Assembly: GCA_008632985.1 (NCBI GenBank)
Contig: QPGO01000005.1
Coordinates: forward strand, 310,001-374,000
Reading direction: 5' to 3'
DNA length: 64,000 nucleotides
DNA from: Psammoneis japonica
Lineage: Eukaryota
Made by a program: the position numbers and the translations under genes. This document shows positions 36,798 to 59,200 of this stretch, one piece after another (position 1 is the stretch's first letter; every line of letters begins with the position of its first letter). The notes beneath the pieces are model-generated. The model worked only from the letters and a program-made list of their open reading frames with translations, searched no databases and was not told the DNA's origin.

Positions 36798-38782
36798 TTA
36801 CGGAACGGTCGCGGGATCGTAACAATAGTCAATGTCGAACACTCCAAATCCCGAGCAACCTGGAACGGGCTCAAATCCTTGGCGACGTTTGCATAATAAA
36901 CCGGGTTTACACTCAGAATCTTCGTCGCAATCCCCTTGGCAAGCGGAAAAAGGAATGCCATACTTTGAACGCTTAAACGTAAAAAGTTGGGGTTCACCTG
37001 GGTTGGACGGAGGTTCTTGACCGTACAGTGGGTTGTAACAATAGTCACGACCCTTATAGCCTTCGTACTCATCCGAGCAACCTGGAATAACTTCGTAATT
37101 CTTACGCTTGAAACAAGTCAAACCTAGAGAAGCATCACAATCGCTGTTGGTGTCACAATCACCTTGGCACATGCCAAGTTTGGGACTAGGGTTTGATTCT
37201 GTCGTGATATCTTGAAGTAGAGGAAGGTTTTCGTCGTTGCCAATTGAAAGTGTTGGCGCAAGCGTTGTGGCCTTTGCTGTCGGACTGACGTATGGCGACA
37301 TTGTAGGTGGAGCAGTGGTGGGGAAGGGTGTAGGAGAGGCGGTTGGGGGTGGTGCTGCTGTTCTTTTTGGTACCGTTGGAGCTGCCCCCTTGTTCTCATC
37401 AAAGCAATAATCAGTGGAATGGGTTCCTGCGCCGGCACAATTGGGGACGTCTTCGTACGCGTCGCGTTTAAAACATTTCAGCCCGCCCTGGCAATCTTTG
37501 TTGCTATCGCAGTCACCTATGTTGATATCGTGAAAGAGGTGGTTAGTAAGAGAGAAAATGAATAGCGTGTTTGCGTTTGGTCGATAGAGTCAGACGGGAC
37601 ATACCTTCGCACTCGCCGAGTGGATACTCGGGAGATTCATCTACTACAATATCAGTGAGCTCTTTCATTGTCGGAGCCGGCGTCGGAGAGAGCGTGGGAG
37701 AGCCTGTAGGAGCTTTCGTTGTTGGAGAGCTTGTAGGGGCGGTAGTTGTTGGAGATGACGTAGGTGGTGCTGAGGCTGAGGTTCTTTTTGGTACCGTTGG
37801 AGCTGCCCCCTTGTTCTCATCAAAGCAATAATCAGTGGAATGGGTTCCTGCGCCGGCACAATTGGGGACGTCTTCGTACGCGTCGCGTTTAAAACATTTC
37901 AGCCCACCCTGGCAATCTTTGTTGCTATCGCAGTCACCTATGTTGATATCGTGAAAGAGGTGGTTAGCAAGGGGGGATATGAACCGCGTGTTTGCGTTTG
38001 GTTGATAGAGTCAGACGGGACATACCTTCACACTCGCCGAGTGGATAATCGGGAGATTCATCTATCACAATGTCAGTGAGTTCTTTCATTGTCGGAGCCG
38101 GCGTCGGAGAGAGCGTGGGAGAGCCAGTAGGAGCTTTCGTCGTTGGAGAGCTTGTAGGGGCGGTAGTTGTTGGAGATGACGTTGGTGGTGTAGATGGACT
38201 GGGTGTTTCAGCTGGAGAGGTAGTAGTTTTTGTTTCAGGAGGAATTTCGGACACAGCCTTGTCCATCCTAGGATCGGGAGCGTTGGGGTCGTAACAATAA
38301 TTAACACCTTTCTTTCCTTTTCCAAAACATCCTCTGACTTCCTCATAGGCGGTTCGCCTCTTACATACGAGTCCTTCCTTGCAGTGCTTCTTACTGCTAG
38401 TGCAGTGTCCCTCGCATGCACCGACTTTGAAAAGCTCCGGGGTTCTATGATATCGTCCAACATACGTGAGTCGCTTCAACGCGTCCTTGTATCGTACACA
38501 GTACCCCGTGTCAGGCTTTCCCTTTCCTTTGCAGCCGGGAACTTCAGCAAACCCAACACGTCTGAAGCAGAACAAGCTTTTTCCTTTACAGTCGTCGTTT
38601 GTTGAACATGGGCCGCGGCACCTTCCCATGGGCTCCACCTTGTTTGGCACCCAAGATAACTGAAAAAGAGCCCGATGATTCTCGCCGACATCTTCATCGA
38701 GGAGATGGCTTTCACCGCTAACATTCAAAGCGATAAAAGCCGAAAGGATAGTGATGTTCTGTAAGAGAGTCTTGACATTCAT
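36798..38782 (-). CDS. Frustulin-like secreted cell-wall protein, 6 Cys-rich domains; 3 exons
   Basis: Signal peptide (ATG 38782); six C.G.C....DC..GL.C..R....VP.C.G.....DYC domains with TxAPTxSPT linkers; two introns inside the CEG|DCD motif. Confidence 0.88.
37360..38190. repeat. Near-identical 421-bp tandem duplication of an exon-intron-exon module in the frustulin-like gene
   Basis: 37360-37769 matches 37781-38190, including the intron. Confidence 0.95.
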
Positions 38783-39299
38783 GGTGCTGAAACGCTTTCT
38801 TTCGAATTTGTGAGACTGGCTGTGGGTCATGACATCCGATTTCAGATTATCTCGCGATTATTCTTGAGGATGCCGGTACTAACTCTCGTACAACAAATAT
38901 GTAATTCTACGAGTGTACGAGAATCAATCGTAGATTCGATAGAATTTCGAAATTCGCTTTCAAAGCATAAATTAAATAAAATATGGATATATACAAATAA
39001 GATGGGTTAATGGCCGAATAAGTCATTGGCATGTCTATTGCCTGGGGCGGGTTTCAACGACTCCGATAGTTAGTACATAACGTTATGGACATTTTGGCAC
39101 AATACCGTGGAAGTCATTCCCGCGCAAACTCACAAATTCAAGATCAAGAGTTCGGTTCGCCGTGCCTTCCATCGTCGTCGGAAGCTCCGACCAGTCCTAA
39201 CAAACCGTTCTGGTAGAGTCCCCCTTGTTCACGCAAAGAAGCTCTATCACACAACATGTTGGCAATGTGTTGCATTCAAAAACCAGATCTAAATTTAAA

Positions 39300-40720
39300 G
39301 TGCCATCACTCCTTTGCCGGCTGTGCCGGTGCTGGCTGACCCACATCCCCAGCACACAGCTGAGTGCGGCAGGAGCTTGCACGGGATTGGCTGGAATGGG
39401 CATCACCAGAAGGTGACACCCCACCAAGACAACTAAAAAGGAATGACTCACATGAGGGATTCATTGCATGCTTGTTGATGACAGCCACAGAAGGAACACG
39501 CCACAGCTGCAGCAGCGGACAATTGCGCTCGGCAGACAGGTTTTTAAAATGGTCCACAAAAGGAGCCTTGAAGGCAAGACAAGCAGGTCATCAGAGAAAA
39601 TGTTCATGGCACACAGAAACAACACTGGGTCTTGTACAGAAAAGCCAACGGGAGCAGCAAACCGAAGACAATCAAGTGGCGCCACAGGATGACTCGCGCG
39701 CTCTTGCTGAAAAGGGCCGCAACAGAAGCAGCACAATCACCACAAAGAGCGAAGCACTTGATTGCATGGCAGAGAAAAGAAATGGGGTTGAAGACCAGAT
39801 GGCAAGGACAAAAGCAGTCTGGAGAAGTAACACGTAGATGGTCAGTGGCAACGCGCAGAAACAACGCCAGATCTTGCGCAGAAAAACAGGCGGGAGTGGC
39901 AAATGGAAAACAATCAAATGACTCCAAATGACAACTGACATTCTTGCTGAAAAGAGCTGCAATGGAAGCAGCACTTGCACCACAAAGAGTGAAGGACTTG
40001 ATTGCATGGCAAGGAAAGGAAGTGGCGCTGAAGACCGACTGGCAAGGACAAAAGCAGGCCGGAGAAGTGACGCAGCAGCACCCGCGGATCCACACAGAAT
40101 TTGTGCTAGAACCTGTGCAGAAAATTTTCTGAGACAAAAGAAAATTACAAGAAATGACAACTGGCACATGATGAGCCAACAGGCAGCGACACTCGTCATT
40201 TTCCACTGATGAACTTTGCCCATCATGCCGCACAACAAGAGTGCGCGCCATTGGCAAACGTGGACAGAACGGGCTTGTTGGCTGGAGCCAAATCAACACC
40301 ATCTGAGAATGGTGACATCAGCACAAGAGCACATGCATGAACACATGCAGGAGGTTGCCAGTGGGTGCATGCACAGAAGAGTGCATTCAAAGAACTCTGG
40401 AGCGCACTTTTGCAGAACAACATTGTGTCTTTCTCAAGGAGGAGCAGGTTTGAGTGCACTGTGCCAGCCCTTCCAGTTTTAGTGTGGAGCAGTGTCCACA
40501 TCAATGACAACACCACCTCCATCACTGTGAAACAAACCATTTGTCCCACTCGCAGTGCTTGCAGTGGACACAGCCAAGCGCGCCGTGCTTTTTCCTCGTG
40601 GATTGCGAGTTTTGAAGTCAGAGGGCCGCCTCTGTCTGTGGTGTCATGAATGTCTAGAGTGACAGCAAACACGGAAAAATCCATGTTGAAATGAAAATGA
40701 CTGCGCAATCAACCTGGGCT
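39300..40720. mobile_element. Degenerate repeat/TE relic, TpA-depleted island
   Basis: About 9 TA dinucleotides in ~1.4 kb by manual count, TG/CA-rich, no credible ORF, contains an internal ~241-bp duplication. TE family not identified. Confidence 0.55.
39608..40080. repeat. Diverged ~241-bp tandem duplication
   Basis: CAGAAACAAC at 39614/39856, GCTGAAAAG at 39706/39946, GGCAAGGACAAAAGCAG at 39801/40041. Confidence 0.9.
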
Positions 40721-40966
40721 GCCAACCGAAGGACCTCTACTCTAGCTAGCAGCTCTCTACTGGCAGCAGCATTTATTTTGTCATTCCGTTGATTATAGCT
40801 CATCCGCCCATACATCATCACTCGAGATTTTGACCTTTATTCTTTTATTCTAAATACTGTATGGTAAATTACCAATTTAATTATTTATATTTGTAGAAAA
40901 AAGATATCCATTCGAAAAAGCCGCAATCCGCCGCAACAAGCCGACATCGCATTTTTTCTTTTCGCC

Positions 40967-42580
40967 ATGACGACTCCAACACGCCATCAAGCCACACTTG
41001 TTGCTTGTGTCATTCTCCTGGCTATTCCTGCTACTGCCGAACCTATAGTATGCCCAGTGGTTGCAAGCACAGACAATAGCACCACGTTGAACCACATTGA
41101 CTCCGTCAAACGGTACAACGAGCTCTCAGGATTGGCCATCTCGCCCACACAAACCGGACCGAGCGGGCAACCCATTCTTTATGGAGCCAACGATGGCGGC
41201 GGAGGAGAACGAATGGGCGTATGGGATACGGGTACAGGAGAACGAATCATGTCACTGCGAATCCCCAACAACCGCTTGAAAAACACGGACTGGGAAGACA
41301 TGACAATCGGTTCCTGCGGTTCGACTGGCGTGGATGATGTGTGCATCTACATTGCGGACGTGGGCGACAATGTCGCTATTTCATCGTCGGGTAGACGTTC
41401 TCGCCGTAGTGAAGCTGTGCCTTACCAAATTTTGAAGATTCGAGAACCCAACCTGGAAGATTATAGGGACAATGATGTGCTACCTGATTCTTCAGTAAGC
41501 ATCTTACCATTTAACTATTTGCATCCGTCTTCACCGACTGCTGCCGCAGACTGTGAATCCATGTTTATTGATCCTACTGGTTGGGGGGAAGGAGGTGCAA
41601 TTGGGGACTTGTACCTTATTACCAAGTGGTATTGGGATGATAAAGGCAACTGTCGCCTTTTCAAAATTCCAGCCTCGGTATGGCCTGATGATGGAGGGAA
41701 CGGTACCATGTACTCTCCCGAGGCTGTGGGGACCTATGTTGCTGGTGGTGCCCTGGACGCTAGTTGGTATTGGACTCGAGCTGAATCGTCTCGGGACGGG
41801 ACTATCATTCAAGTGGGAGAAGACGTGGAAAACTTTCTGTTTTTACGTTGTCCCGGCGCTACCGTGGCGGAGGTACTGGCCAATCCAGACACGTCTGTGC
41901 AGAATTGTCTTCGATGGTTCGATCCAACACCGGGTCAATCAGAAACCTTTGCATGGATGCCGGATGGAATGAGCAATTTGCAAATTCCGGAATGGAGCCA
42001 CAACATGGGTTGGACAACCATGTCCTATGATGTAACCAAGACAACACAAACATGTCCAGAGGTTGGTTATGTGCAAGGTCAATGCGTGGCGCTTGAAACA
42101 AACGATCCACTTCCGGACGCGTGGTGCCAAGCGGCAAATCCCGATACGAGCACACCGACACTCGCTCCGGTAGACCAGTCAACCGTCGCTCCAACATCAC
42201 GTCCCAGTCCAGGACCAACTCTTTCTTCGGTACATTCAACATTGTCGCCATCGGTTTCACCACCAACTCTTTCTCCGGTGCATTCGACTTTGTCGCCTTC
42301 AGTTTCACCAACTCTTTCTCCCGTGCATTCGACTTTGTCGCCTTCGTTTTCACCTCCAACTCTTTCTCCCGTGGATTGGACTTTGTCACCTTCTATTTCA
42401 CCGCCGCCTCTTTCTGCCGGGGATTTGACAGTGACACCTTCGGTTTCGCCGTCCACAATTGTCTTTTCCAATACATCACCATTGAATGGTGATGATTCTT
42501 CCGATGCCGACAGCATTTTGCGAAATGTTAATCTACCCATTGCTGTCATTGCATGGACACTTTTCTATCTGTGCTTATGA
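40967..42580 (+). CDS. Secreted, probably GPI/membrane-anchored surface protein with a bacterial-type beta-propeller-like domain and Ser/Pro/Thr stalk
   Basis: Signal peptide; ELSGLAIS, NDGG, DWEDMT, IYIADVGDN, DCESMF and LYLITK motifs; TLSPVHSTLSPSVSP repeats (~42215-42400); hydrophobic C-terminus; intronless. Confidence 0.8.
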   Translation: MTTPTRHQATLVACVILLAIPATAEPIVCPVVASTDNSTTLNHIDSVKRYNELSGLAISPTQTGPSGQPILYGANDGGGGERMGVWDTGTGERIMSLRIPNNRLKNTDWEDMTIGSCGSTGVDDVCIYIADVGDNVAISSSGRRSRRSEAVPYQILKIREPNLEDYRDNDVLPDSSVSILPFNYLHPSSPTAAADCESMFIDPTGWGEGGAIGDLYLITKWYWDDKGNCRLFKIPASVWPDDGGNGTMYSPEAVGTYVAGGALDASWYWTRAESSRDGTIIQVGEDVENFLFLRCPGATVAEVLANPDTSVQNCLRWFDPTPGQSETFAWMPDGMSNLQIPEWSHNMGWTTMSYDVTKTTQTCPEVGYVQGQCVALETNDPLPDAWCQAANPDTSTPTLAPVDQSTVAPTSRPSPGPTLSSVHSTLSPSVSPPTLSPVHSTLSPSVSPTLSPVHSTLSPSFSPPTLSPVDWTLSPSISPPPLSAGDLTVTPSVSPSTIVFSNTSPLNGDDSSDADSILRNVNLPIAVIAWTLFYLCL

Positions 42581-42797
42581 CAAACCTTAGAGATGTTTCA
42601 ACGCCGTTTGCTACTGCCGAGTTAAAAATTAGCAGTATGGTAACGAATGTATTGCAATATTTCAAGCGCGACTCTGTCAAGATATGTCAAAATCTCGTCT
42701 GTAAATATGCCTTGTTGCTCCAAAAGGCAATCTAAAGTAGGGGCGTTTTCAAACAAAAGAAACGTTTTCGCAGACGTCATTGAAAACCGAGGTACTT

Positions 42798-44688
42798 TTA
42801 CCAACCTGCCATCATCTCACGTTCGATTTCTCTTTCTATTTCCCTTTCTATCTCGCGTTCAATCTCTCTTTCGATTTCTCGTTCTATCTCGCGCTCAATC
42901 TCCTTTTCAATTTCTCTTTCGATCTCACGCTCAATCTCCTTTTCGATTTCTCTCTCCACCTCACGCTCAATCTCCTTCTCGATTTCTCTCTCCACCTCAC
43001 GCTCTACTTCGCGTTCTATTTCTTTTTCGATCTCCCTTTCCACCTCGCGTTCAATCTCCCTTTCCACCTCGGCTTCAATTTCTCGTTCGATCAAATCTTC
43101 GTACAGGGCCTGTTCGTACATTCCAGTGTAATATCCCATATCATAGCCCAAGCTATACTCTAAACCCGAACACACCGGACCAAAGAGTAGTTCGTCAATG
43201 ACCCATCCGGCCAAGATTGCCAAGAAAACCGCCCCTGCCATGTCACCTGCGCTCATTTGTTGTCGATACTGAACTTTCTCGCCGCTCTTGGATGCGGTAG
43301 GCTTGAAAGTGTAGGGCAAATCAAGGACGCTGCCGGAATGACAACTGTCAATGAGACATGTCACCTTTACGCCTTTTTTCATCGGTTGAACAAAATGATT
43401 AAAGAGGTTGAAGTCACGAATGTGTCCTGCCTTGGGATGATCCAACGGAATCAGCGTTTGATCGTATTCATCGTTCTTTTGTTTGAGCGAGTTCTGATCG
43501 GCTTCTAGGAATCCACCGTGTCCACTGTAATGGAAAAAGACAGAATCACCCTCATTGCTGATCTGAGTCAATGTCTTCAGCTTGGCTATCATTTTTGCCT
43601 TGGTGGGTTGTTCTCCGTCTCCATCATCAGTCAGTAGGGTGATATTTTCTTCCGGGAAGCCGTGTATATTTTTCAGATAATCCTTCATGTGGTAGACATC
43701 ATTGTGACAGCCCCGAAGTTGCCCGTTTTGACCCACGTAATTGATTCCGACCAGTAGAGCCCGTCGTTTGCCACTGGTATTTCCGTCCTCGTCTGTTCCA
43801 CCATGAAGCGTAAAGGGAGTTTCGTCCAAATCAAGTGGTCGACTGCTGGAAAGCTGAGGGACTTGAGAGTGTCCCTGTTCCTTGAGTTTGTCTCGGAGCG
43901 CCATGAGTGCATCCTGAAAGGAAAACTTTTCATCCTGGTACTTGTATAATAGTTCCAACAGGGCCGACGTGCAGCCCCTCCTGCACGTCCCTGGGGTCGG
44001 GCAAACCACTATTGTTGGCGGCGTTCATAACATCGGCGCTGGTTTGCTCGTCTTCGCATCCACTAATCATTCTTACTTCTGCGGGAATGAGTTTCTCGGC
44101 TTGCTGTAAGAATTGTTCTGGATCTTGAGGAGCATCAGCCGCGGCTTCCTCAGGATCAACGGTTGCCTTTTTACGATGGTATTCGGACATGTCACGGCTA
44201 ATGACATTGGTGAGCGGAGGCGGAGGGATTTTGGATTCCGCCTCGGCAATCTTCTCTTGTTTTAAGGCGGCTTGCTTCTTTTGAATGTCTGGTGACACCT
44301 TCTTAGCCGCAACTTGTTTTTGGATACGTGCCTCTTTGTCGGCTTGGGCCTCTCGGCTGTTCTTTTTGGCACTGACCCGTTTCTGGAGTTGGGCGTCCTT
44401 TGCAGCTTGGGTACGCTTGCTGACGACAGCAGCGTCGCCAGTTTTCTTCTTTCCGGTCTTCTTTTTGGCCTCTACTTGCTTCCGTATCCGAGCTCTCCTG
44501 GGATCTTCGGGTTGTTTAGGCTTTGGCTTTGGTTGCTGAGGCTTTGGCCTAGGCTGCTGCTGTTGTTGTTGGTACCGAGGGTTGGGGCTTTGCTGTTGTT
44601 GATAACGAGTCCCTCCGCCAGCCGTAGGACGAGGTTGTTGTTGTGGAGGGCGACCTTCGTTCACTGGGACGGATTGGTCGCAACCCAT
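42798..44688 (-). CDS. Type III metacaspase (p10 before p20) with MGC N-terminus and (I/V)E(R/K)E-repeat tail
   Basis: p10: VRMISGCEDEQTSADV...CTSALL...QVPQLSSSRPLD. p20: RALLVGINY, LRGCHNDV, FHYSGHG, DSCHSG. Two apparent 1-nt deletions at C/G runs near 43975-44000 break the expected PDPxGRAGGAC. Confidence 0.9.
42816..43091 (-). repeat. Coding 12-bp tandem repeat, about 23 x (I/V)E(R/K)E
   Basis: Translation IEREIEAEVEREIEREVEREIEKE...IEREMMAGW; synonymous codons vary between units. Confidence 0.95.
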
Positions 44689-45026
44689 GCTCACTATTGG
44701 ACGTTTGGTTGTCAGAAGTGTTTCTTGATGCTTTCGATGAGACAAAACTCGACCATCTGGATCTCGCTTCTGTTGAACGAGGATATTGCGGATAAAGATG
44801 TTAGTTGTGGCTTGTGGCCGCCATTGGCCGCCAAATAAAAAAAGAGATGATGATGGATTCCTTCTGACGGAAGTTACGACATATATATATTTATTCCGGT
44901 ACATATATTTATGATACGGTAGAACACGACTAAGATATTAGAAATAAGGATTCCGTATTCCAATATCGTTTGCAACTTCGCCATAAGACAGTCGCCAAGC
45001 TTTTCTACACAGCCGAAAGACGGACC

Positions 45027-48000
45027 ATGGCGTCGGAGCCGCAGAGTACTTCAAAGAAACGACTTCGTCCCGATTGGACGAATGAAAGCGATGACGAGAA
45101 AATCAAAGAAGTAGTAGAGCCAGAAGAAGTCACCTTAACGCCACACACACATCGGCTATTGCGACTCATTCAAGAAGGCACAACCGAACATGCCAAGCTA
45201 GCAGCTTCGCATCTCACATCTATTGCTGCGACATCATCTCCCTTGATACTGTGGGATTTATTGGGGAGACTTGTAGAAACATTAGCATCGCCATTGTGGA
45301 GCTGCAGATACAACGCAAGTCTTGCAGTCGAGGGGATCGCGCGACACTTGCCACCGTTGGACCAACAAGAGTTTCTTGCATCCAATCACGAGCAGCATAG
45401 TGACTCGGAGGGATTATGGTTAAGCATATCCGACTTGGATCGACCCATTGATGATTCAAAGAAAGCGATTGGCTTAGATTTGGTGATTGAAAAAGGTCGT
45501 CTCCTTCTGGCGTCGTCGGGAACTCAGTACGACTCTGAACTTGACGAAGCCTATCAGAGCGAAGCTCAACAGCTGAATCGGCTGGATGCTTCTTCTGGTA
45601 CCCGTGCTGATTTTTTAAAGGAAAGAATTGCTCTTCAACGGTCAATATTGGCGCAGCGATTGGGGTTTGGTGGTGTATTGGGTTCGGTGACGGACGAGTC
45701 ACAGTTCTTTTCGCATGTCTTGACAAACGAAGACCTTTTGGTGTCGTCATCGACTGCAGAGGTACCGTCGGCTACTTCACGTCGACAGCAGCATATGGAA
45801 CGAATCAATAGTCGGCGAAAAGAGGAGAAGGCTCGAGAGGATTCCTCTAACTCAGTACGAGCTCTGTTGGTTATGGAAATGAATCAACAACAAAAGGCAT
45901 GCGCTGGAGCGACTTCCCATAAGAACCCACAAACACTCTTGGGGACCGAATTCATCTATCAAATGTTTTCCCCATTTTGGTATGTGCGGCATGGAGCCTT
46001 GCTTGGGGCTCTTGCGTTACTTAGAGCTTGGAAAGGCTCGTACACGGACAGAAACAATGCAGCTTTCGGCGTGTGGCCTCATGACATTTTGGCACGATGT
46101 GTTTGTGTCTTGGCCTTGGATCGATTTGGTGATTATTCCGGCTCGTTTGACATAGCCAGTGATAAGAACTCAGACGAGATTTCAACAGATGTGAGTAGTG
46201 GCGGTGTTGTCGCACCCGGCCGAGAGGTGGCTGGGCAGCTCCTTTCAATGATTCTCGCAATGGCACCCCAGAAAGTTCAGCAAGATTGTTTGAATCTCCT
46301 ACTGCACATGACGAAGCATCCTACAGAATGGGAGGTGAGACATGGCGCACTATTGGCGTTGAAATATATAGTAGCTGTCATGATGGTAGATACTGCAGAA
46401 GGGAACGTGGAGATGATGAGTTGGCTTGAGAAGGTATCGCGTGCTGCAATTGAGAGACTTGTCGACAGCAGTGAAGATGTTCATTGCGTCGCATCACAAG
46501 TACTTTCCAGTCTTATTTCAGCAGAAGCAAAAGTTGTCTCTCAGACCAAATCGCATTTGGATTTCAATGCCTTGTGTGAGGCTGCGGTCAAACCACTCTG
46601 GGAAACCCTGGCAAAGGTTGGAGTTGTTTCTACTTCCGTCGTGGACCTTGTCGACTTGTTTTCTCGAATCGTTTGTCGCGACCCGAATCTAGTGCTTCGT
46701 TACCTGACAACGGATGGCGCCAGGACAAACCTTTCATCTCGTCATGCAGAAACGCTCCGACATCTTCTCGAGAAGCTTGCCGACTTCCTAGACTACCCTT
46801 CTCTGAATGTAAAGCTCTCTGCGCTCCGCTCTCTTGAGGTTGTAGCTCGGCCAATCTCAGCCATTATCGCTCGCGCTGCTGCTGTCGACCAGGGAGACGA
46901 CCAATCAACAGCTGCTTTTGCTTGTTGCGCTTCTGTCCTTCTCCAAAACCTCTTTGATTCCTACTTCGATGGCTCGCTTGTGCATCCCGACGACGGCACC
47001 GCGAGTCGCGAGCTAGAACGACTAACTAGCGCAAGGGATCACGCGTGGAGGAAGCTGGTCGATAATTTCCAGGCCCTCTTCGAGAATACCAGAGAGCTAT
47101 ACATGAAACTAGCAGTATCTTTGATTCTTCGCTACTTCGGAATCAGATGGCCGGATAGTAGCAGGTCAGCGGAAGATGGAATATCCTTGTCAGGTGCTGG
47201 AACGGCTATCCACACATCCGACTCGCTTGACCTCCATGCAGTTCGAGCCCGTACTGCACGAGTTCTTGTGTATTTTCTTTGGGCAAACATTGCTCGTACA
47301 GAGTCGGTCGATAATATTGCTGTCGACGTTGATAGGCTGCTTTGCGTCACGCTGGCTTCGCATCTGCAATCCCCTTGGCCCGACCATTGCGAGGCGGCGT
47401 GTCTGCTCTACAAGGAACTTGGCCTTTTGCTGACTACAAATGAAAGCCTCCAACCGCTGCTTCAATCGTCGCTTGAGACCTGCCAGTCCCTATTGTGCGA
47501 TATGCTGGTTCTATCGCCCTACTGTATGCGGCTCGGAACAAATAAAGAATCCGAACAGGAATTGGCCGCCTTGTGTAATAGCGCATTCACTGCCACGCTT
47601 GTTCGACAAATTGACGCAAAGAATGGAACTCCAAGCCAACCCCTTGATTCGGTACAGGAACTCGTGAACCTGTGGAAGGAGTCTTTCAAAGCAACAGGCG
47701 CAGCTATCGATGCGAATGAAGATCTCCCACCTCCGGTTAGTATGGAATCAGTACGGTTGCAAGCGGTGATAGCAGGATGCATGCTTCCCTTTGGTAGGAA
47801 ATCCCTCCCACCGAAGCTCACCCCAATGATTCGATCTCTCATGACAGCTCTAAAGAATGAGTCAAGCAGATCTCGACAGAGAGAGATCTCTTTAGACATT
47901 GTTCAGATGTTGAAGCTTCTATCTATGGGAGACGATCTGAGAGTGAGAGATAGGGTGTTAGAGAATATCTGCGTCCTTGTGGAACATGAGAAATCATCTA

Positions 48001-50766
48001 CTGGCCTTGACACCAATGCCAAAGGCTTCGCTGCGGCCGCGTATGTTCTCGAGCAAATAGTCCATCAGCTTCCAAGTGACTACACCATAGAATGCCTTCC
48101 TTCAATTTGGGCGAGAATAAAGCTATTGAACAGGTGTAATCAATCTGCCACAGAGGAAGTGGTGCTGGAGAACTCCTTACGCATTTTGGGTGTTGTGTCG
48201 AGATCGCTACGACGTGATGCCGACTCCTTCGCTCACTTGATGGACTTTGCGGTCCCATCTCTCGTGCTTCTCGCTTGCGAGTGCCCTTTTCAAAATGCCC
48301 GATGTCTTTCCCTAGCAGCGTTTGAGTCATTTTGCAGGGTCGACGCTTCGAGGACACTCAAGAAAGGATTGAGAATTGTAGTGAAGTATCTCAGAGACGC
48401 TGAAAATGACGCATACAGGCTTGCGAGTTGTACCTTGCTGCAATCGATCATCGAATCTGCCGGGACGGGAATTTGCGAGTTCGTCAGGTACCTTCTGCCT
48501 ACTGTGATGTCACTGATGACTGATCCGTTAATAGATTGCGCGAAAATGGCTGCTCGGAGTTTTGCTGAGTTAGTAATGATTGCCCCTCTAGTGCGAAGAG
48601 ACCAGTCATATTTTGTTGAGGCAACCGACGTCAACGATTCTGCCACGAAGGTGATTGATCATCTAATTCATGGATTACCCCTCCCGCCTTGTCACCTGCC
48701 AGCTGCAATCACATCGGATTTGAACCAGACCGGCACAACTCTGAGGCAGTACCAGAAAGAAGGCGTAGCTTGGCTAAGGTTTTTGCAGACGGTAAACCTC
48801 AACGGAGCTTTGTGTGATGATATGGGAACGGGAAAAACGTTGCAAGCTTTGGTGGGGATAGCAATTTCGCATTGCCAGGCGATCGAAGCTGGTGAGACCC
48901 CTGTCTCTTTGGTCGTGTGTCCTGCAACGGTCGTCGGTCATTGGGTTGCAGAAATCAAAAAGTTCTTTCCCTCCGAAAACATATTTAGAGTTTTACCGCT
49001 TGTCGGCCGCGCAAAAGACAGAAGATGTCAGTGGAATCGAGAGATCTCAGCTTGTAACATCGTTGTCACGAGCTACTCCTATCTCCGTAGTGACATTGAT
49101 TTGCTCGCAAATAAAGCGTGGCGATATTGCGTCTTAGATGAAGGCCATCTACTCAAAAATCCCAAAACAGGTATGTTTATTCTACCGTCGCAAGTTCACT
49201 CTCGCGTGTGTGATCTCATTCTGAAATCTCGTTTCTTTTCTTCACTTCAAGCTACTGCCGTCGCGTCTCGACGCATCCGCGCAAGTCACAGATTGATACT
49301 CACTGGAACTCCCGTTCAGAATCGCGTGCATGAGCTCTGGGCAGCTTTTGATTTCCTCATGCCAAACTTCCTCGGCACGGCAACTTCTTTTACGAAAGAG
49401 TTTGCAAAGCCAATTGCATTGGGGCATGCTCTTGACGCATCTGCAGAGAGCGTGGGGATTTCCATTCAGAAGTTGAAGTCCTTACACCAGCAAGTGCTGC
49501 CTTTTATTCTGCGGAGAGAGAAGGGGCAAGTTCTAGCAGAGCTTCCTCCGAAGTGTATCACGAATATACCTTGCACCATGAGTGTGGAACAAGAACGTCT
49601 CTATCGAGAGTTTTGTTCCGGAATTCGAGGCAAGAAATCTCTTGCGGCGTTGCAAAAGCTTGTGAATGAATCATCACACGAACTGCACACTGATCGTGAA
49701 TCGCAACGTCCAATAGCAGTCGGGGCTGATGTGCTTAAATCTCTACTTTACCTAAGGCTTATATGCACTCACCCCTCGCTCGTAAGTGGGCGGCAGAGAT
49801 CAGGTGCTGGCCTTTCTGACGGTAGGCCAATTGATCGTTTTGACTCCTCCGGCAAGTTGCTGGCGCTGAACGAACTGCTCCGTGGCGCCGGGATATGCGG
49901 TGATGAGATCACGGCTGCTGACAACGACACGTCTCTGTTCTTTTGTGACGATGAATGTGCTGACCACGACTCCTCTCTCGATGTTGAGAATGGGACTTCT
50001 CATGATCGTGATCAACTCGATGCAACCGCTGGCTCAGACCAAAGACCAGGTGGATCGAAGTGCTTAGTATTTGCTCAATTCAGCCAGAGCCTTGATGTAA
50101 TTGAGAAATTACTCTTCTTGCCTCACATGGCTTCGTTGCGGTACCTGCGGATGGACGGGAGCACTCCTCTCAAAGAACGAGACAGAATTGTTGAGAGCTT
50201 CAACATGGATGAAAGCATCAAGGTTATGCTGCTAACAACTCGAGTGGGTGGACTCGGACTCAATCTCACAGGTAAGTATGCTATTATCATGCAGCGCAAC
50301 CTTTGTAGAAACGTGCCTGAACCCGTTATGCTTGCGTGCATTATCAGGCGCTGACACCGTGATTTTCGTTGAGCACGACTGGAATCCACATACTGATTTA
50401 CAAGCAATGGATCGATGCCACCGCATTGGTCAAACCAAAACTGTGAATGTGTACAGGCTGGTCACGTCCGATACGATAGAGGAGCAGATAATGAAAATAC
50501 AGGACGCCAAACTTGCAATGAGTGAAGCAATCGTAAACACGGACAACTCCACAATGTACAGCATGGGAACCGATCGGCTACTGGATATCTTTGCATTTCG
50601 AGGTAAAGCAGCTCAGAACGACGGTGTCGAAAGCTGTGGCAAGAGCGAATTTGACGGGTTTGATGATTCATCCTATACTTCTGACGACTATTCGAGCCTT
50701 TCGTTGAAGGAGTTCGTCCGTGGATTCTTACGCGACAGATCTCATCACGGCAGTGAAGAATCTTGA
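45027..50766 (+). CDS. BTAF1: TBP-associated SNF2 ATPase BTAF1/Mot1
   Basis: HEAT-type [73 protein letters not shown] and [13 protein letters not shown]; introns near 49171-49251 and 50272-50348. Confidence 0.93.
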
Positions 50767-50835
50767 TAAAAGCGCTGATCTCTTTGTCAGGCTTCACCAT
50801 GGGAACGCTACCAGTACTTTTAATACCTGGATATC

Positions 50836-51453
50836 TTATAACCCATTTTCAACAAAGCCCATTGCCTGTAACACAAGTCCCGCGCACTTTCGTCGAGCTA
50901 TGTCAAAGTCGTTCTCTGAGAGAAGTGACTGCATCTCTGTTTCATCCTTTTCCGATGGTCCCAGGAGATGAAATCGTTTCGCCACATCTTGAATTAAACG
51001 ACGGGAACGCTCTTCTTCGCTCCCTCTTTCGTATTCCTGGGCAGCCATTTTCGATAGAACTACCCCGTATCCTCCGCGTCCTCCATCGGAGCCATCCCAT
51101 CGACCGCGTTGCCAAGCTAGAGCTAATACGAGCTTCACTTCTTCAAAGGGAATGACACCATTTTCACCTAAGCTAGGACTTCGAAGATTATCTACCAGGG
51201 AAGATCGTGACTGGCGATCTGAAAACTGTTGACGACAAATAGCAGCACAGTCATGCCCCGTACCAACCGCTGAGCCCCAATTCCATTCCGCAGACGTCCA
51301 GCCTGAATTGGGGATGTTGTAAATTTCTCGATTACCCGAGGACATTATCATAAACGAGAAAGCTGATACTCTTGAGGCAATAACAACTGCCAAGTAAAGC
51401 AGCACCGGTAGTGCTGTCCGTGTCTGAGCCTTTTTCATGGCCAATGTTGCCAT
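50836..51453 (-). CDS. Conserved-looking hypothetical protein, probably plastid-targeted
   Basis: Signal peptide plus VSA-FSF; Trp/Gly-rich motifs SGWTSAEWNWGSAVGTGHDCA and WQRGRWDGSDGG. Start Met 51453 or 51438. Confidence 0.7.
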   Translation of the reverse strand: MATLAMKKAQTRTALPVLLYLAVVIASRVSAFSFMIMSSGNREIYNIPNSGWTSAEWNWGSAVGTGHDCAAICRQQFSDRQSRSSLVDNLRSPSLGENGVIPFEEVKLVLALAWQRGRWDGSDGGRGGYGVVLSKMAAQEYERGSEEERSRRLIQDVAKRFHLLGPSEKDETEMQSLLSENDFDIARRKCAGLVLQAMGFVENGL

Positions 51454-51494
51454 GGTTACGTCGCCAAAATGCCAAAAAATGAAAAGTGGAGGAC

Positions 51495-51579
51495 GTGAAG
51501 TCGGACGGCTCACGCACGTACCAAATACGTCATCATCGTCCGTCCTTCTATCCAAGTTTCATGACACTGCTCGAGAAAC
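51495..51579 (+). repeat. Left copy of an ~85-90-bp direct repeat bracketing the large island
   Basis: GTGAAGTCGGACGGC...CCAAGTTTCA...CGAGAAAC aligns to 61300-61389. Confidence 0.9.
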
Positions 51580-53479
51580 AGATAGAGAAGACACAGCGAG
51601 AGTGACGACACTCCTCCGGCCGATTTCAAGACTGGCGGCATGGACCATCAGAGCTGCCATGGATGATGTGGGATCAACCTTTGGCCGTTGTTACAGGAAG
51701 ACAAGGGCCCAAGGTTGGACCCGACGGAGCAGCGACACAGCAGGGGCGGGGTGGGGGGGGGTGAAGTGCACAAGATGATTGTTCCCTGCAAGCTGGCGAC
51801 TGTGATGACACAAGGACCAGCAAGAAGAAGAGACATGGAAAAAGGTGCCTGACTGTCATCCACAAACAGTCTGGCTGGCCATGTGCACCAGCCGCACTGG
51901 TCAAAAAACTGATGACACCGTCCCCTGACCCCCCCTCCTGCCTGGCACGTCTGGGCCAGAGACAGTGCAGGTCACAGACAGGCTGACAGGGAAGGCATGA
52001 ATGTCAGCAATCAACCAGTGAGATGCATTGCAAACCAGATGACCCAAGAGCAAGTGGACAAAACAAAAACACAAGGGGCTGTTTGGGTGGCAGATGCCAA
52101 ACAGATGGGAGACAACAACGTGCCTCAACAGAGGTGTCCCGCAAGGGGGGCACTCTGATTGGAGACATGTCTGTGCCAAATGTCTGTGCCACCAGTGGGG
52201 CGCAAGGCACAATGATGGCGCACAATGCATTTTCAGGTGCTGAGGCTGTGGAACTTCAACAAAAAATCAACTGGACAGGCTTTCTTGTGACCGCCGCTGA
52301 CAGAATGCAAAACCTGTTTGTTGAGGAGGGGGTGGCACACAGGAGCAAACAGCAACATGCTCAGACTGCAACATGCCCTTTCTTTGTTTCTGCAAGGGGG
52401 CACATGCAGGCAGCCACCCACATCCACAGGTTGTTGTGCTGCTGGTGTGCCAAGTGCCAGACAGACTTTGAGTGAACATGGATTGTCAGGACAAGTGGGC
52501 TGTGCAAAAGAAGTGGATCCTTGTCACCCATGCAAGTGACATGTGCACCAGCACCCAGCTGTGCACATGGTTTGTCAGGCTCAAATTGCACTGCGTTGAC
52601 CTTGAAAAACTTTTCTGTCGGTGTCATGGGTGATGGATGGTGAGACCCATGATGGCGCACTTGGTGAGATGATCTGATCTGAGTTTGAGGCAGCAAAGCC
52701 ACACGCGCATGTTTCACATGTCCAGAACAAAGCAGATGTGGTCAACTCCAATTGCAATGACCACTTTTGCACATGACAAGCTTGGAGAGCAAGCTCCATT
52801 TTGCAACCCAACATTTGACAAGAGAATGACCTGAATCATCATCAGAGCTCCACAGAGCTCTCACCTTCAGAGAGCAGCTTTCTTGACAAGTGATGCAACT
52901 GGTGTGGAACAAGGGGTCTGCTGATGTTGCCAGCAGGATGAGTTCATTGATGATGTGCCTGTGAATCAGTGTGCCATGAATGTCATCCTTGGTTTGGATG
53001 TGTTTCAGATCATCAAAGAACTGACCCAGATCTGGGGTGCATCACCACACTTGTCATTCAGGCAACCTGTGGCCTGTTGCTGGTTTGCACATTGTTGAAA
53101 AGTGAGCTGTGTGTTGGCAAGAGTGTCAACAGCACCCTTTGTGGTGTCTTGAGATTCACCATGATGGAGGTGCCCTCATCATGCATGGAAGTGTGAGCAC
53201 TTCCAGGATCAAAAAGCTGTTTTGTGCTCATTTGGCTCACAAACCACCAAACAAAACAAGATGGGGTTGTGTCAAAAAAAAAAGAACATGTGACAAGACA
53301 AGGCTGCAAAATGATGGAGCAGAAACACATTGAGAGGTGACATGCACAACAGACTTCCCTGCAAACTGGTGGCTGTGACAACATGAGCACTGGTGAGAAA
53401 GAGTGAGAAGGAGATCTCAGAGAGATCTGCCTCATCTGCTGTCCAAAATGCTGCCTGACCATCATCTGCAAACAGCCTG

Positions 53480-54110
53480 GCCATGTGCAATGGTGCTGGC
53501 CAACTGACAGGACCAGGGCAGGTGTGCTGCCTGGTGCATTTTGCTCTGCCAATGTTGAGGATGCAAGAGCCAATGTGGATGACAGAAGCACAACAGAAAG
53601 TGTTGTGGTCTCACTCCTCCATGCTCCATCCTGAAACCAAGCAACCTGTGAAGATGTTGCAGCAAGCTGATTGACTGTTGGAGTGTGGTGGCTTGCCATG
53701 CTGTCAATGTGCACCCTCCAAAACCTGCAGTTCTTCTGCAGAAATTCTGAGTTGGCTCACACTGATCAAGACCTTGCGCTGGCAAACACAACTTAAATCA
53801 CCATTGGGCACCCAAAAGAATGATGAGATGAGCTGCAATGCGGTGATGACATGCTGGGACAGGAACAACTTGCTGTGCCCAATGCAAGCCTGGGATGCAG
53901 CAGTCTTCCACATCTCCTCAACAACCTCCCTGACTCCAGTCAATGTTTCAGCATGGATGGTCAAGCACCTGCACTTCTTTGCTCCTGTTCCAGACTTCTT
54001 CAATCCTGAAAAACCAGGAGTGCACAATTGTCATGAGCTCCAAGCCATCACAATTGCCGTGAACTGCAAGCCATTGCTCATGCAAACAATGGCCCATGCT
54101 GAGCACAGTT
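53480..54110 (+). pseudogene. Possible tyrosine-recombinase remnant of a DIRS/Ngaro-like retroelement
   Basis: Across frames: GAF..A(M)LR..E, HTDQDLALA...ITI, QKNDE...V....LLCPMQAWDAAV..I.S....TPV. This recalls the QK.DE...LCPV.AW pattern of such recombinases. From memory only. Confidence 0.4.
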
Positions 54111-55507
54111 GATGGTGCAACAACTGCTGCGCAGCTCACTCTCTTTGCTTGAGCGGCAGTGCAGAGATGAGAGTGGCTGATCAGAGATCAAAATTTTGCA
54201 AGTGAGTCATGATGGTCATGTCAACTGCAGAGCCATTCTTGGGTCACTGGGGAAATGTTCAGGGCTAGAATCTGTGACCTGAGGGGGGGGGGGCTTGGTT
54301 TGATGGGTCATTGTTTGTTGGTCCTGTGAGCCAGAGCAATTTGCACAAATCATGTGCAAGTTGGGACAGCAGGAGGCATGGACAAGTGGATGAGTGCATC
54401 TTGTCATTTGGCTGCTTGTGCACACCTGACATTCAGCAGACTCAATTTCCTGCACAAAGGTCACCTGTCATTCTCTGTTGACAATGCTGGATTTTGTTGA
54501 TGATGATGCATGAATCTGTGTCATGTGCTGCAGTGCTGTTGAGTTGCTGCTGGGGAATGGGAGTCTTGTGCCATGATGCAGAAAAGCATGCAGAAAAAGT
54601 TGTGCTCCACAAAATTCTTGGGGGGGAGAAAGCTGACTCAGATTTTTTGCCTTGTTTCATGTGACATTTGCATCCCAGTGACCATGTCAGTTGGAGGCCA
54701 GTGGTGGCTTAAGGTGCTTGGTCCTGTGAATGAGCTCAACACTTTGCTCTCTTCAGCAATGCTCAAGGGAGAGGCACTTGGGGATGATGATGCAGCACAC
54801 CTGCAAAAAAACAGTGACAAGGGTGTCACGGTCACGGCGCAGTTTTTGACATCACACATTCACTGCACCTGCCACAGAGCTTGTTGACAGAGCTCTTCCA
54901 TTGGTGTGTGATGAGAAGCTTGTGTCTGCAGGCATTGATGGTGCCTTGGTTGATGCATGAGAAGCTTGTGTCATCTGCAGGTGTTGTTCCAGTCTGTGCA
55001 TTGACAGGTTCCATCATTGACAACAAAAGTGTGGCCCAAGAGGCTCCTCAAGACAGAAGTGTCCAAAACACCAACTGGTGAACAGAGGAGTTTTCTGCAA
55101 AGCACAAGACAGCACATGATCTAGGATGCCAGCACTCTGGGTCTGACTGCCTGTCATGATCTGGGACTTTCCTCACTGTGATCACAAAAATGGTGTTGCT
55201 CAACAAGCCAGGCATTTTTTTTTTGTTTTAGCTCAAAACTGGCTGAGTTTGCAGGGCTCTGTCAGAAGCAAAACCACACTCCACTTTTGTCAAAGGGCAA
55301 TCTTGTGTCCAGCCCCACAGTCAATTTGGTTCTTTGAGTTTGTTTTGTTGTTTCTCTTGCTGCCGTCTCTCTTCATTCAATGCAGTCACTGCCCCTGATT
55401 TGTCTCATTGCATGTTTCTTTAAAAATTTGTGCTCCATGCCACCACCTTCATGTTTTTTACCTTGCCACAGATTTTAACTGCCGCTGAAGTTGTGGCTTG
55501 CACACTG

Positions 55508-55931
55508 GCTTGGTTGATTGCTGCTGCTGCATGCTTGTTCTGCACTGGCATTTTTTGTGCTTTCAAAGGCAGGTCATCCCTCCCATTGGTGTGTCACACC
55601 ACTCCTCTCTCTCCTCCCTCTTTCATTTCTTTTCTGCTTCCCTGGACAAGCTTGGCGTTGATTGCCATTGCTGCTGCTTGTTCTGCACTGGCATTTTGTG
55701 CATTCAAAGGCAAGTCATCTCTCTCCCGTTGGTGTGTCCCACCACTCCTCTCTCTCCTCCCTCTTAAATTTCTTTTCTGCTTCCCTGGACAAGCTTGGTT
55801 GATTGCTGTTGCTGCTGCTTGTTCTGCACTGGCATTTTGTGCATTCAAAGGCAGGTCATCTCTCCTGTTGGTGCATCCCACCACTCCTCTCTCTCCCCCT
55901 CTTTCATTTCTTTTCTGCTTCCCTGGACAAG
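55508..55931. repeat. Three tandem copies of a ~142-bp unit
   Basis: Units start at 55508, 55650 and 55793; each ends CTTCCCTGGACAA. Confidence 0.95.
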
Positions 55932-57569
55932 TTTGCTTTTTCTCACCTCTGTTCACTCCTGGAACCCAGACTGCAACCTGGGTTGTCAGCTCTGTCCTGC
56001 TTTGCCCACCACACATGCACAGCTCATTGCATTTCTGTGGGTGATCCTTCCATGCTCCATCCCTGACTCTGCTTTGCCAACTCACCCCTTCCTTGGGTCA
56101 TGCACTTCACATCCTTTACATTGTCCGCTGTCAGTTTCCTCCTCCTTGCAGTGTCATCTTTTTGTCCTTCTCCAATTTTTAAGTTGTGATGGAAGCCTTG
56201 TTGCAGAAGTTCAAGCACACGAACATGGCAAATGCATGGATGAAACAGCAAGTCATTCTTCTGGTGATTCAGCGGTGCTTCTGCCAAAATGTGTCTGGCC
56301 CACCACTGTCGGCACAATGTTTTCCACAGGAACCATGCACACATGTCCCTGTCTGCTTGGCTTTTCTTCAAGTCCTTGCACTCTGCCAGCAAACCTTCCA
56401 AAGTGAAAACTGCACGTGCACAAAAAATGATGCACCAGGCTCACCTGTTTGAAAAGACACACAACTCTGACTCTTTGTCAGGTGCATCATTGTGGCTCAC
56501 CTGTTGTTCATCTCCTGGTGTTGTCTTGCACATTGTTCCTCTTTCTGTTGAGCACATTCCAAAAGACCTCTTTGCATGCATTCCAGAATGCTTTTTTTAA
56601 CCTTGCCATGCTTCTCTTGAACTCCTGCAATGCCATTTTTGTACAATCACCTCCCAGCACTGCCAGCTCTTTTTCAAACGACAACAATGAATTTGTGGTG
56701 CAGCCACAAAAGTTCATTGACAACCTTGGTCAACATTGATCCAACTGTTCTCTTGCTCATGACTGGAGTGTGATCCATCACCTGATGTCCCATCGGAGTT
56801 GCCACAGAACTGGAGCTGCCCCATTCCAGCTAGAATCAATGCAATTCTTTCATTTGCAGGTTCATGAGCCCTGCTGTTGCAGGGCTCATGGTCACCGCAA
56901 TTCATCCCAAAATTGCCAACAAACTTGTTGGCAGTCTCTCTGATCATCTGTCCTCTTGCAACTCCTGCTCTGCCCAACTCACTGCCAGGAGCCACCCTGC
57001 CACCATCTGGTTCTGTCTGCCCTGTCACAACTGAGCCTTCCATCTGCATGCACTCTTTTCTGCATCTCAAGACTGTGGCATTTGTTGTCATCACCCATTG
57101 TTTGTGCCACCAGAAGTGGCAAAGTGAGCGCACTTTTTCAGAGTTGGCTTCTGTGTTTTGTCATTGGAGGCATCTCCTGATTCACTGCCTTTGCACCAAC
57201 TTTCTTGGCTCATCTCTTTGATGATGGTGGAACATGTCCAATCTTCTCACCATTTGAAAAGTCTCTTAACAAGTGCAACCACCACATTCAGGCAAACGCC
57301 TGACTCCGATTGTGGCAAGGTGATGTGGCAAAGTGCAACTGAGCTCTGTGCAATCCAAGAGCAGACATGATTCTTGGCCATTTGGCAACATGGATGAAGC
57401 ACAACAATGTGGAATTTGAGCATGCTCTGTTTGATGTTTTGGGCAGAACAAGAGCCAGATTGATGTCATCATGATGAAGGCCAGAGATGCAGCAACCCTT
57501 GGTGCAAGAGTTTTGCTGCAAGTGGAAGGTGTGCCAAAACAACACTTTTCTAGATGGGTGTTGCATTGG

Positions 57570-57680
57570 GGAGCATTTGTTCAAGCACTGGGTGGCAATG
57601 GCCAACCCTGTTGTTGGAATGGACCACAACAAAAACACACAACATTTCATTGGCAAAGGTGCATGATCATGTGCTGGCCT
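57570..57680 (+). pseudogene. Possible Myb/SANT-like (Harbinger ORF1-type) remnant
   Basis: W.....NPVVGMD(Q/H).K..TF.W..VHDH pattern across frameshifts resembles LCxAW...DPIVGxDQ...FW. Confidence 0.25.
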
Positions 57681-58089
57681 TCTCCCACAGCTCACAGTTT
57701 GGTCTGGTGCAAATGTTGCACAAGCTGCTCACAACAAGTTCACAAGAGCTTGAATCTGGCAAGGTGCTGCTGTGTTTGATTGTGTTCTCCTGCAGCTCTT
57801 AGTTTGGTCTGCTGCAAATGTTGTGCAAGCCATTCACAACAAGCTCCTGAGAGCTCAAATCCTGCAAGGTGTCATTGAATCCTTTGCCAAGCTCTGTTGG
57901 TCAGGGTTCACAGGGACATCTGACAACTTGGCACTTTGACCCTCTCCAAATTCTGCCACAGCCCATCATGGACTTCAACGTTGCTTGACAACAAAGTTCC
58001 AACTCAGATTGGCCAGTGGATGACACATGAGGAGGTGTTGGAGCCTGCCAGTTCCATGGTGGGTTGGGATCACAGGTTGCACCACTTCA

Positions 58090-58410
58090 TCTGCCAGAAA
58101 CAAACAGCAACACTTTGCAAGAAAGAGTGGCACTTGCATCAATCTGCTTTGACTGCTGAAAGCAAATGGCGCTGCTTCACATGAAAGAGATTGTGTTTGT
58201 GGAGATTGTGATGCTTTGTCTGCTGGAAGCAAACAGCGCCACTTTGCAAGCAAGAAAGAGCCTCCTTGTTTTGGCAAAAGTGCCTCACATGGCATCTCAC
58301 TCCTTTGTCTGTCAAAAGCAAACAACAGTGCTTCAAAACAAAAAGGGCAGGTTGCGGCATTTGCAGAGATGTTGATGCTTCTTTTGCTGGAAGCAAACAG
58401 TGCTGCAGAG
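58090..58410. repeat. About 5 degenerate copies of a CTGCTGGAAGCAAACAGC-like motif at 65-90 bp spacing
   Basis: Copies near 58091, 58153, 58220, 58309 and 58385. Confidence 0.6.
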
Positions 58411-59097: not shown

Positions 59098-59200
59098 TCA
59101 AACAAGGAGCTTTGCCTTGGCCCTGGAGAGTTCACCTGCTGACAGGGTTCCATTGTCATGCAAAGCCTTGAGCTTGGCAAGCTTTTCTGTGACATCATCA
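59098..59200 (-). pseudogene. SHOCT-like C-terminal domain remnant
   Basis: DDVTEKLAKLKALHDNGTLSAGELSRAKAKLLV* fits LxxLKxLxDxGxL(S/T)xxE(F/Y)xxAKxKLL. Confidence 0.55.

Follow-up and report, generated by a model that had tools for sequence, protein, structure and literature searches.

We examined positions 39300-40720 of a stretch of DNA from the diatom Psammoneis japonica (the window, by which we mean the whole 64-kb stretch that was analyzed) and found a non-coding block, the small island, that is severely depleted of the dinucleotide TA, partly depleted of CG, and enriched in CA and TG. Our analysis suggests that two processes, a transition directed at TpA and the decay of CpG, probably reshaped a copy of a non-coding repeat family in the nucleus of the diatom. 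A longer block with the same features, the big island, has a nearly TA-free span at 51692-61213. Both islands have an aberrant composition with sharp limits and consist of repetitive DNA, the differences between their copies are concentrated at pyrimidine–purine (YR) steps on both strands, and the TA and CG deficits are partly separated in space.

The small island comprises 1421 nt (A449 C340 G378 T254), and its plus strand is purine-rich and A-rich. It contains 9 TA (observed/expected ratio, o/e, 0.11), 45 CG (0.50), 173 CA (1.61), and 126 TG (1.86), compared with o/e values of 0.56–0.60 for TA, 0.97–0.99 for CG, and 1.11–1.16 for CA and TG in the background outside both islands. In 950 overlapping windows of equal length (1421 nt) drawn from the background, the minima were 35 for the TA count, 0.40 for TA o/e, and 0.785 for CG o/e, and the maxima were 1.41 for CA o/e and 1.48 for TG o/e. 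The original prediction, made from the letters of the DNA, had estimated about nine TA in 1.4 kb; the exact count is nine, below that of all 950 windows. The 17 longest TA-free gaps in the window all lie inside the two islands, and the longest gap elsewhere is 211 nt. TA is thus reduced approximately five-fold and CG approximately two-fold in the small island, and CpG is not as depleted as TpA; equal depletion was the outcome that the original prediction had named as decisive against its own proposal. The G+C content of the islands is 48–50.5%, compared with 47.8% in the background.

In the big island, positions 51900-61000 contain 22 TA (o/e 0.04) and 55 CG (o/e 0.10), and CA and TG both reach 1.87. 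Its edges separate the two deficits. The span without TA (51692-61213) is longer than the CG-poor span (51948-61070), extending beyond this core into DNA of normal CG density by 256 nt on the left and 143 nt on the right. The left edge (51692-51948) contains 0 TA and 8 CG; the right edge (61070-61213) is TA-free with a CG density that has returned to normal, and positions 61000-61199 contain 0 TA and 7 CG. This confirms the earlier observation that the edges of the big island keep CG and lack TA. The further claim that the loss of TA is not a by-product of CpG decay is supported by these uncoupled edges, by the mass balance described below, and by the TpA-only hypermutation measured directly in another alga.

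The coincidence of the two deficits in the same two blocks could alternatively reflect one mechanism, in which a single enzyme or complex (for instance a deaminase of DNA that accepts A as well as C) drives the two self-complementary YR steps, TpA and CpG, to CA/TG in marked repeats, as a GC-neutral counterpart of fungal repeat-induced point mutation (RIP). The G+C content of the islands, close to that of the background, agrees with this idea, and a recent preprint on the chlorarachniophyte Bigelowiella natans (Mettrop et al., bioRxiv 10.64898/2026.01.13.699255) refers to reports of DNA deamination by ADAT2 enzymes at both A and C. We consider a single mechanism very unlikely, because the losses are uncoupled at the TA-free, CG-bearing edges of the big island and differ in degree in both islands (TA 0.11 vs CG 0.50 in the small island; 0.04 vs 0.10 in the big island). 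In addition, the surviving CG steps lie in G/C-rich flanks, as is the case for 5-methylcytosine deamination. The hypermutation of B. natans, as its preprint describes it, affects TpA only.

Comparison of repeat copies suggests how the composition arose. The small island contains two tandem copies of a unit of approximately 241 nt on the plus strand (39606-40124, with copies at 39606-39885 and 39848-40124 and a spacing of 240–242 nt). Their identity is 72–77% in the four-letter alphabet and rises to 91% after recoding as purine or pyrimidine. Over positions 39614-39831 and 39856-40071, the four-letter identity is 77.5% and the purine/pyrimidine identity is 91%. The copies differ by 56 transitions and 22 transversions, and the differing YR steps consist of 5 CA/TG swaps, 15 pairs of CG with CA/TG, 2 pairs of TA with CA/TG, and 1 pair of CG with TA. 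The specific differences quoted in the original prediction were verified, namely gaagTAa at 39828 vs gaagTGa at 40068 and ttgTAca at 39635 vs ttgCGca at 39877.

The big island also contains internal repeats. A copy at its left edge (51723-51877, plus strand) has a partner at 53297-53483 that four-letter blastn missed and that was exposed by recoding into purine/pyrimidine letters, in which the two match at 88% over 108 nt and 100% over 32 nt. At this pair, 9 of 25 shared CA/TG steps are swapped over 122 aligned positions, and 12 of 29 in a wider alignment. A 143-nt tandem repeat with three copies (55508-55935, plus strand) has one column that reads CA, CG, and TG across the copies, and a 105-nt tandem repeat with two copies (57680-57882, plus strand) shows 6 CA/TG swaps and 14 CA/TG steps that are conserved. 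When each island was compared with the window by four-letter blastn, the internal repeats and one flank repeat were the only matches, with no similarity between the islands.

In total, seven in-island repeat pairs show 30 CA/TG swaps, each of which requires two adjacent transitions, vs 123 conserved CA/TG steps. In contrast, five control repeat pairs outside the TA-poor blocks show no swaps vs 78 conserved steps (Fisher p = 1.8e-6). Swaps of this kind are the predicted outcome if a TA or CG of the ancestor was resolved separately in each copy. We also calculated a mass balance by randomly converting the window's own background TA and/or CG to CA/TG in silico. Full conversion of both predicts CA 1.92, TG 1.91, and a G+C content of 46%, close to the big island (1.88, 1.87, and 48%), whereas conversion of CG alone predicts CA/TG o/e of 1.62 and a G+C content of 42% and fails to match it. 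The root-mean-square deviation from the big island over the 16 dinucleotides is 0.094 for the conversion of TA and CG and 0.178 for that of CG alone. For the small island, converting 81% of TA and 49% of CG predicts CA 1.61 and TG 1.61, and the observed values are 1.61 and 1.86.

Many diverged relatives of the small island exist in the same sample and mark a repeat family. They were found in run X1, the only DNA run containing the window, whose contigs were aligned to positions 38800-58700 (19.9 kb). Of the 330 contigs on this stretch, 72 have at least 99% identity, 72 have 95–99%, and 186 have 90–95%. The diverged contigs gather at 39278-40791, with loose ends at 39278 and 40321. The summed contig depth, which is not a copy number, is 406, 1315, and 561 in three bins covering 38800-40791, compared with approximately 60 in the flanking genes. 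At 39319-39890, there are 18 variable sites, 17 of which are transitions, and 14 of these 17 fall at YR steps vs 49% expected (p = 0.005). Six of the YR variants involve TA and eight involve CG; the six TA-type variants comprise four to TG and two to CA, with the direction taken from majority states only. At 39362, 39389, and 39462, the relatives read TA in 74%, 61%, and 81% of the depth, and this copy has TG or CA. At 39435, 39829, and 39835, this copy has TA, and 95%, 92%, and 35% of the relatives' depth is TG or CA. The variants therefore run both ways, since TA or CG is held either by this copy or by its relatives. A search of metagenome contigs with a degenerate YR pattern of the repeat unit gave 0 matches.

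Two further features of these contigs were observed. One X1 contig links sequence resembling the small island (40165) to sequence resembling the big island (58349), with a shorter side of 23 letters; the join may be a genomic copy in which relatives of both islands are adjacent, or a chance match. In addition, extra X1 contigs over part of the SNF2 gene (47348-47349 and 47833-47852) carry CA>TG double changes and one TA>TG change. These may represent hypermutated paralogous fragments elsewhere, and the alignments are short and near contig ends.

The swaps, the family variants, and the mass balance point to mutation after amplification and not to a native composition. Alternatively, the repeat family or a foreign source may have been poor in TA and CG from its origin, perhaps because UpA and CpG were selected against at an RNA stage, with no directed TA mutation in this genome. 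In keeping with this, all of the relatives in X1 appear TA-poor, and no TA-rich founder was identified. Avoidance of UpA and CpG has been published for expressed RNAs and RNA viruses (PMC3829696). Nevertheless, we regard a native origin as unlikely. The TA o/e of 0.04–0.11 is far beneath all of the background; the inter-copy swaps mean that the copies arose while these YR steps were still TA or CG; and at three sites with TG or CA in this copy, most of the relatives' depth is TA. TA sites account for 6 of the 18 variable sites, although TA makes up only 9 of 1420 steps. The limits of depletion are sharp and differ between TA and CG, and the big island has neither the coding periodicity nor the domains on which selection could act.

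The sequence context of the surviving steps suggests a preference of the TA process. None of the 31 surviving TA steps (22 in the big island and 9 in the small island) lies in an ATA or TAT context, compared with 49% of background TA (p = 1e-9). In the big island, TTAA accounts for 10 of the 22 survivors, compared with 4.5% of background TA, and YTAR contexts (Y, pyrimidine; R, purine; TTAA, CTAG, and CTAA/TTAG) account for 17 of the 22. The products are also skewed: compared with random resolution, GTA to GCA, TTA to TTG, CTA to CTG, and ATA to ACA are commoner. All four skews favor an adenine with a 3′ pyrimidine, by approximately 1.4–3.5 standard deviations (approximately 2.4–3.5 in three of the four 5′-neighbor classes) in a rough estimate that assumes a background-like ancestor. 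We read this as a putative T-A-pyrimidine preference. It resembles the U-A-C context in the anticodon loop of the tRNA substrates of TadA/ADAT2-type adenosine deaminases.

The survivors of the CG process show a different pattern. GCGC, CCGC, and CCGG contexts hold 24 of 45 CG in the small island and 29 of 68 in the big island, compared with 18% of background CG, in agreement with the original prediction that CG persists in GCGC- and CCGG-like contexts. Survival in G/C-rich flanks is expected for the spontaneous deamination of 5-methylcytosine. Apart from these contexts, the dinucleotide GC is increased (o/e 1.26 and 1.33) and AT is decreased (0.82 and 0.83) in both islands; random conversion of background TA and CG predicts 1.05 for GC and 0.91 for AT, unlike the islands. 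A preference for TAC to TGC and TAT to TGT would shift GC and AT in the observed direction.

From this footprint we infer which way each change ran, the enzymes behind it, and the signal that targets them, as follows. The cell would aim two mutational processes at silenced repeat DNA. The first would convert TpA into TpG or CpA, that is, A to G on either strand, for which adenine deamination in DNA would be the simplest chemistry; it would have removed approximately four fifths of TA in the small island and nearly all in the 9.5-kb big island. The second would convert CpG into TpG or CpA, presumably via cytosine methylation, and would have removed approximately half of CG in the small island and nine tenths in the big island. 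Since both processes end in CA/TG, G+C would stay near the genome mean while copies drift apart by transitions. Because the big island is enriched in CA and TG to the same extent, both strands appear to have been hit, which argues for DNA and not a one-strand RNA intermediate as the substrate.

A broader and rather unlikely version of this proposal is that diatoms possess a RIP-like, GC-neutral genome defense, in which a DNA adenine deaminase with a T-A-pyrimidine preference and CpG cytosine deamination act jointly or reside in the same enzyme. The YR steps of marked repeats would then be driven to CA and TG and repeatedly re-randomized between the two. Together with the findings in B. natans, such a defense, if true, would imply that the editing of adenine in DNA is an ancient immune function in the lineages of the SAR group (stramenopiles, alveolates, and Rhizaria).

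The original prediction also held that TA mutates faster than CpG and that the small island may be an earlier stage. A faster TA process receives modest support. By arithmetic that assumes a background-like ancestor, TA would have decayed with an exponent of approximately 1.66 and CG with one of approximately 0.66, which gives a ratio near 2.5; at 39300-39900, 3 of 5 TA sites of this copy vary among relatives vs 4 of 22 CG sites, a difference that is not significant (p = 0.09). The earlier stage was not established. The small island may be younger or less methylated than the big island, and the same composition is expected if it has reached a steady state of its own, in which the TA process acts at full strength and a CG process, weakened by less methylation beside two promoters, balances newly formed CG. 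This steady state is possible though somewhat doubtful as an overall account, and as a description of the stage it is about as likely as an earlier time point.

Several observations agree with a steady state. By arithmetic, each surviving TA step of the small island is matched by 33 CA plus TG steps and each surviving CG step by 6.6; in the big island, the corresponding ratios are 97 and 39. In both islands, TA is therefore more strongly depleted than CG. The variants between copies go either way, the internal duplicate shares a single CG beside its 15 pairs of CG with CA/TG, and the density of CG is even across the small island (4–8 per 200 nt). In contrast, the small island has relatives of 90–99% identity and the big island is mostly single-copy, which fits a younger element without proving its age; composition alone does not separate time from rate.

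An artefact, in which modified bases were misread or the assembly was mis-polished so that TA and CG appear as CA/TG in the consensus, is extremely unlikely. X1 contigs cover the big island at a depth of 65–67, equal to that of the neighboring genes, with some multi-copy bins, and two long contigs reproduce it over 3894 and 2799 nt with 1 and 5 differing letters, respectively. In-island copies also differ by transversions and indels, which are not expected of systematic misreading, and over 2.1 kb the conversion is virtually total. The islands may contain some assembly noise, since the window and X1 differ by six substitutions in 51753-58700 (6.9 kb of the big island) and by none in 40800-51400 (10.6 kb of genes; p = 0.004). 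These differences, at 56575-56576, 57307, 57708, 52400, and 58370, include a CA>TG swap, CG>TG, and TG>CG. They could represent fast ongoing change, allelic difference, or assembly noise, and the swap lies in a multi-copy bin.

The TA process fits the kind of TpA hypermutation described in B. natans, which would here occur in a new lineage and be overlaid with ordinary CpG decay. In mutation-accumulation lines of B. natans, two integrated viral regions show an approximately 1000-fold hypermutation, at approximately 6e-7 mutations per site per generation; 230 of 231 mutations in these regions are A to G or T to C, and all 230 lie on TpA (10.64898/2026.01.13.699255). The B. natans genome contains 124 clusters of TpA-poor and CpA+TpG-rich windows, which are enriched for unannotated and mobile-element genes, and the authors propose an ADAT2-like DNA adenine deaminase. 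Their cut-offs (at most 0.43 for Rho TpA and at least 1.52 for Rho CpA+TpG) are passed by both the small island (0.11; 1.61/1.86) and the big island (0.04; 1.87/1.87); the small island, at 1.4 kb, is too short for their three-window cluster rule. In both organisms, TpA appears to become TpG or CpA on both strands, the affected DNA is local, sharply bounded, TA-poor, and CA+TG-rich, the mutation raises G+C, and the targets appear to be silent or degraded, non-host-like, and mostly unannotated DNA.

The two cases also differ. The target here is a non-coding repeat without a viral or transposon domain, and it is near saturation, compared with a Rho of 0.45 for the nucleocytoplasmic large DNA virus (NCLDV) insert of B. 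natans. The flanking-base pattern that we describe is absent from the main text of the preprint and may be in its supplements. Furthermore, the footprint alone is seen here, and not mutations as they arise.

The CG process resembles methylation-driven CpG decay, given CG o/e values of 0.50 and 0.10 with a matching gain of CA/TG, pairs of CG with CA/TG between copies, and the concentration of surviving CG in G/C-rich flanks. Diatom transposons are reported to be CpG-methylated (PMC2806351; PMC9998398). This decay by itself cannot account for the loss of TA, for so large an excess of CA/TG, or for the preservation of G+C.

Two other known systems were considered. RIP converts CpA to TpA, so that TA increases and G+C falls. 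Like RIP, the changes in the islands degrade repeated DNA by context-dependent transitions on both strands, so that copies diverge by transitions (for fungal repeats, see PMC2621366); the sign is the opposite, since TA o/e is 0.04–0.11, CA/TG is 1.6–1.9, and G+C is 48–50.5%, and fungal RIP was rejected. Hyperediting of retroelement RNA from adenosine to inosine by ADAR-type enzymes, fixed when the RNA is copied into DNA, shares with the islands the A to G changes and the 5′ U/T preference. A one-strand pattern is expected of it, whereas the big island has an o/e of 1.87 for CA and TG alike and the family variants go to both TG and CA; it was likewise rejected. ADAR favors a 3′ G, and TAG and TAA contexts survive here. 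The six-frame Pfam scan of the islands found no reverse-transcriptase relic.

Some of our results weigh against the proposal that two processes acted on a nuclear repeat family. Run X1 may be the source of the window's own assembly. TA may also arise by ordinary mutation, as at 39435 and 39829, where 95% and 92% of the relatives' depth is TG. The direction of change is deduced from the depth-weighted majority state of three sites and from the mass balance, both of which assume a background-like ancestor, and one of these polarized sites, 39462, breaks the 3′-pyrimidine rule. The 15 pairs of CG with CA/TG in the internal duplicate are accompanied by a single CG/CG pair; because shared CG is thus fewer than independent decay predicts, some CG may be newly made. 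The absence of transposon or viral protein domains and of coding periodicity in the big island supports the term "repeat" and not "foreign DNA". Finally, the precedent is a preprint on a distant lineage, as B. natans belongs to Rhizaria and the host here is a stramenopile, and the loss of CpG is added here: the words "CpG," "flanking," and "diatom" are absent from the main text of the preprint.

A full-text literature search found no report of TpA loss or of islands free of both TA and CG in diatoms, and the study of diatom retrotransposons by Maumus et al. 2009 (PMC2806351) contains no mention of hypermutation, dinucleotides, deamination, or RIP. Around orthologues of the DEAD-box helicase gene of the window, 60 loci (392,730 nt) in metagenome contigs contained no 1-kb window with TA o/e <0.2 and CA/TG >1.5; these contigs are short and gene-dense and have little bearing on other diatoms.

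So far, a single report, the 2026 chlorarachniophyte preprint, describes directed hypermutation of DNA from A:T to G:C at TpA. If our proposal is true, the phenomenon would extend to a second major, genetically tractable lineage and would affect ordinary repeats besides viral inserts. Combined with CpG decay, it would erase repeats without the AT-enrichment typical of fungal RIP, and any candidate deaminase would have to match the flanking motif, in which TA followed by a pyrimidine is sensitive and YTAR is resistant. Such islands conceal old repeats from four-letter similarity searches, and comparison in purine/pyrimidine letters recovers them.

The stretch is, as judged from its predicted proteins, nuclear DNA of a diatom. 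Its long open reading frames (ORFs) encode gamma-tubulin-complex, Mot1-type SNF2, YL1, metacaspase, and DEAD-box proteins. The closest named relatives of the DEAD-box helicase are from Fistulifera, Nitzschia, Cylindrotheca, Fragilaria, and Skeletonema (63–67% identity); further matches reach 72% identity, and a near-identical entry is absent among the database matches.

The small island forms the shared upstream region of two divergent genes that read away from it. The left ORF (37964-38857, minus strand) encodes a cysteine-rich, Ser/Thr/Pro-rich protein of secreted type with a Pfam match below threshold only. The right ORF (40967-42580, plus strand) encodes a protein of 537 amino acids with a Ser/Pro-rich repeat tail, in which a Pfam scan found zero families. 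The island itself appears to be non-coding because its tandem unit of approximately 241 nt would shift the reading frame. Its period-3 signal is ambiguous, as one of six windows, overlapping the tandem repeat, scores 6.0; in the big island, coding periodicity was looked for and none was found. A six-frame Pfam search of both islands with stops read as X gave zero families at the cut-off, and the only matches, to SHOCT (17.9 bits against a cut-off of 27) and to DUF7129 (11.9 bits against a cut-off of 30), were at chance level and were rejected. No Rfam family was found at E ≤ 0.1 over 38500-62000, and a scan of the whole window found no tRNA. Terminal inverted repeats, long terminal repeat ends, and target duplications were looked for in the small island, including by eye, and none were seen.

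A direct repeat of approximately 100 nt (51489-51590 and 61294-61400), 77–81% identical, flanks the big island. Its copies differ by 11 transversions and 8 transitions, with no CA/TG swap. At three of the four differences between TA and CA/TG, the left copy, located outside the TA-free span, carries TA and the right copy, at the TA-poor border, carries CA/TG; the fourth is the opposite. This right border contains 2 TA in 61200-61399.

Other repeats lie in the neighboring genes. To the left of the small island, a 421-nt tandem duplication (37360-38190), 95% identical, lies within genes for cysteine-rich, Ser/Thr/Pro-rich secreted proteins; its TA and CG content is normal, and it served as a control pair for the swap counts. 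To the right, a periodic repeat of 12/24/36 nt (42813-43091) encodes the (EREI)n-type tail of a metacaspase-like protein (42798-44024, minus strand). Run X2, which has no contig over either island or 38800-42119, a part counted as uncovered and not as evidence, appears to be RNA-like, since one of its contigs omits 49169-49249 and 50269-50344, both with GT..AG ends. These two segments are introns of the Mot1/BTAF1-like SNF2 gene (44970-50354, plus strand). The run search itself listed no RNA run that contains the window.

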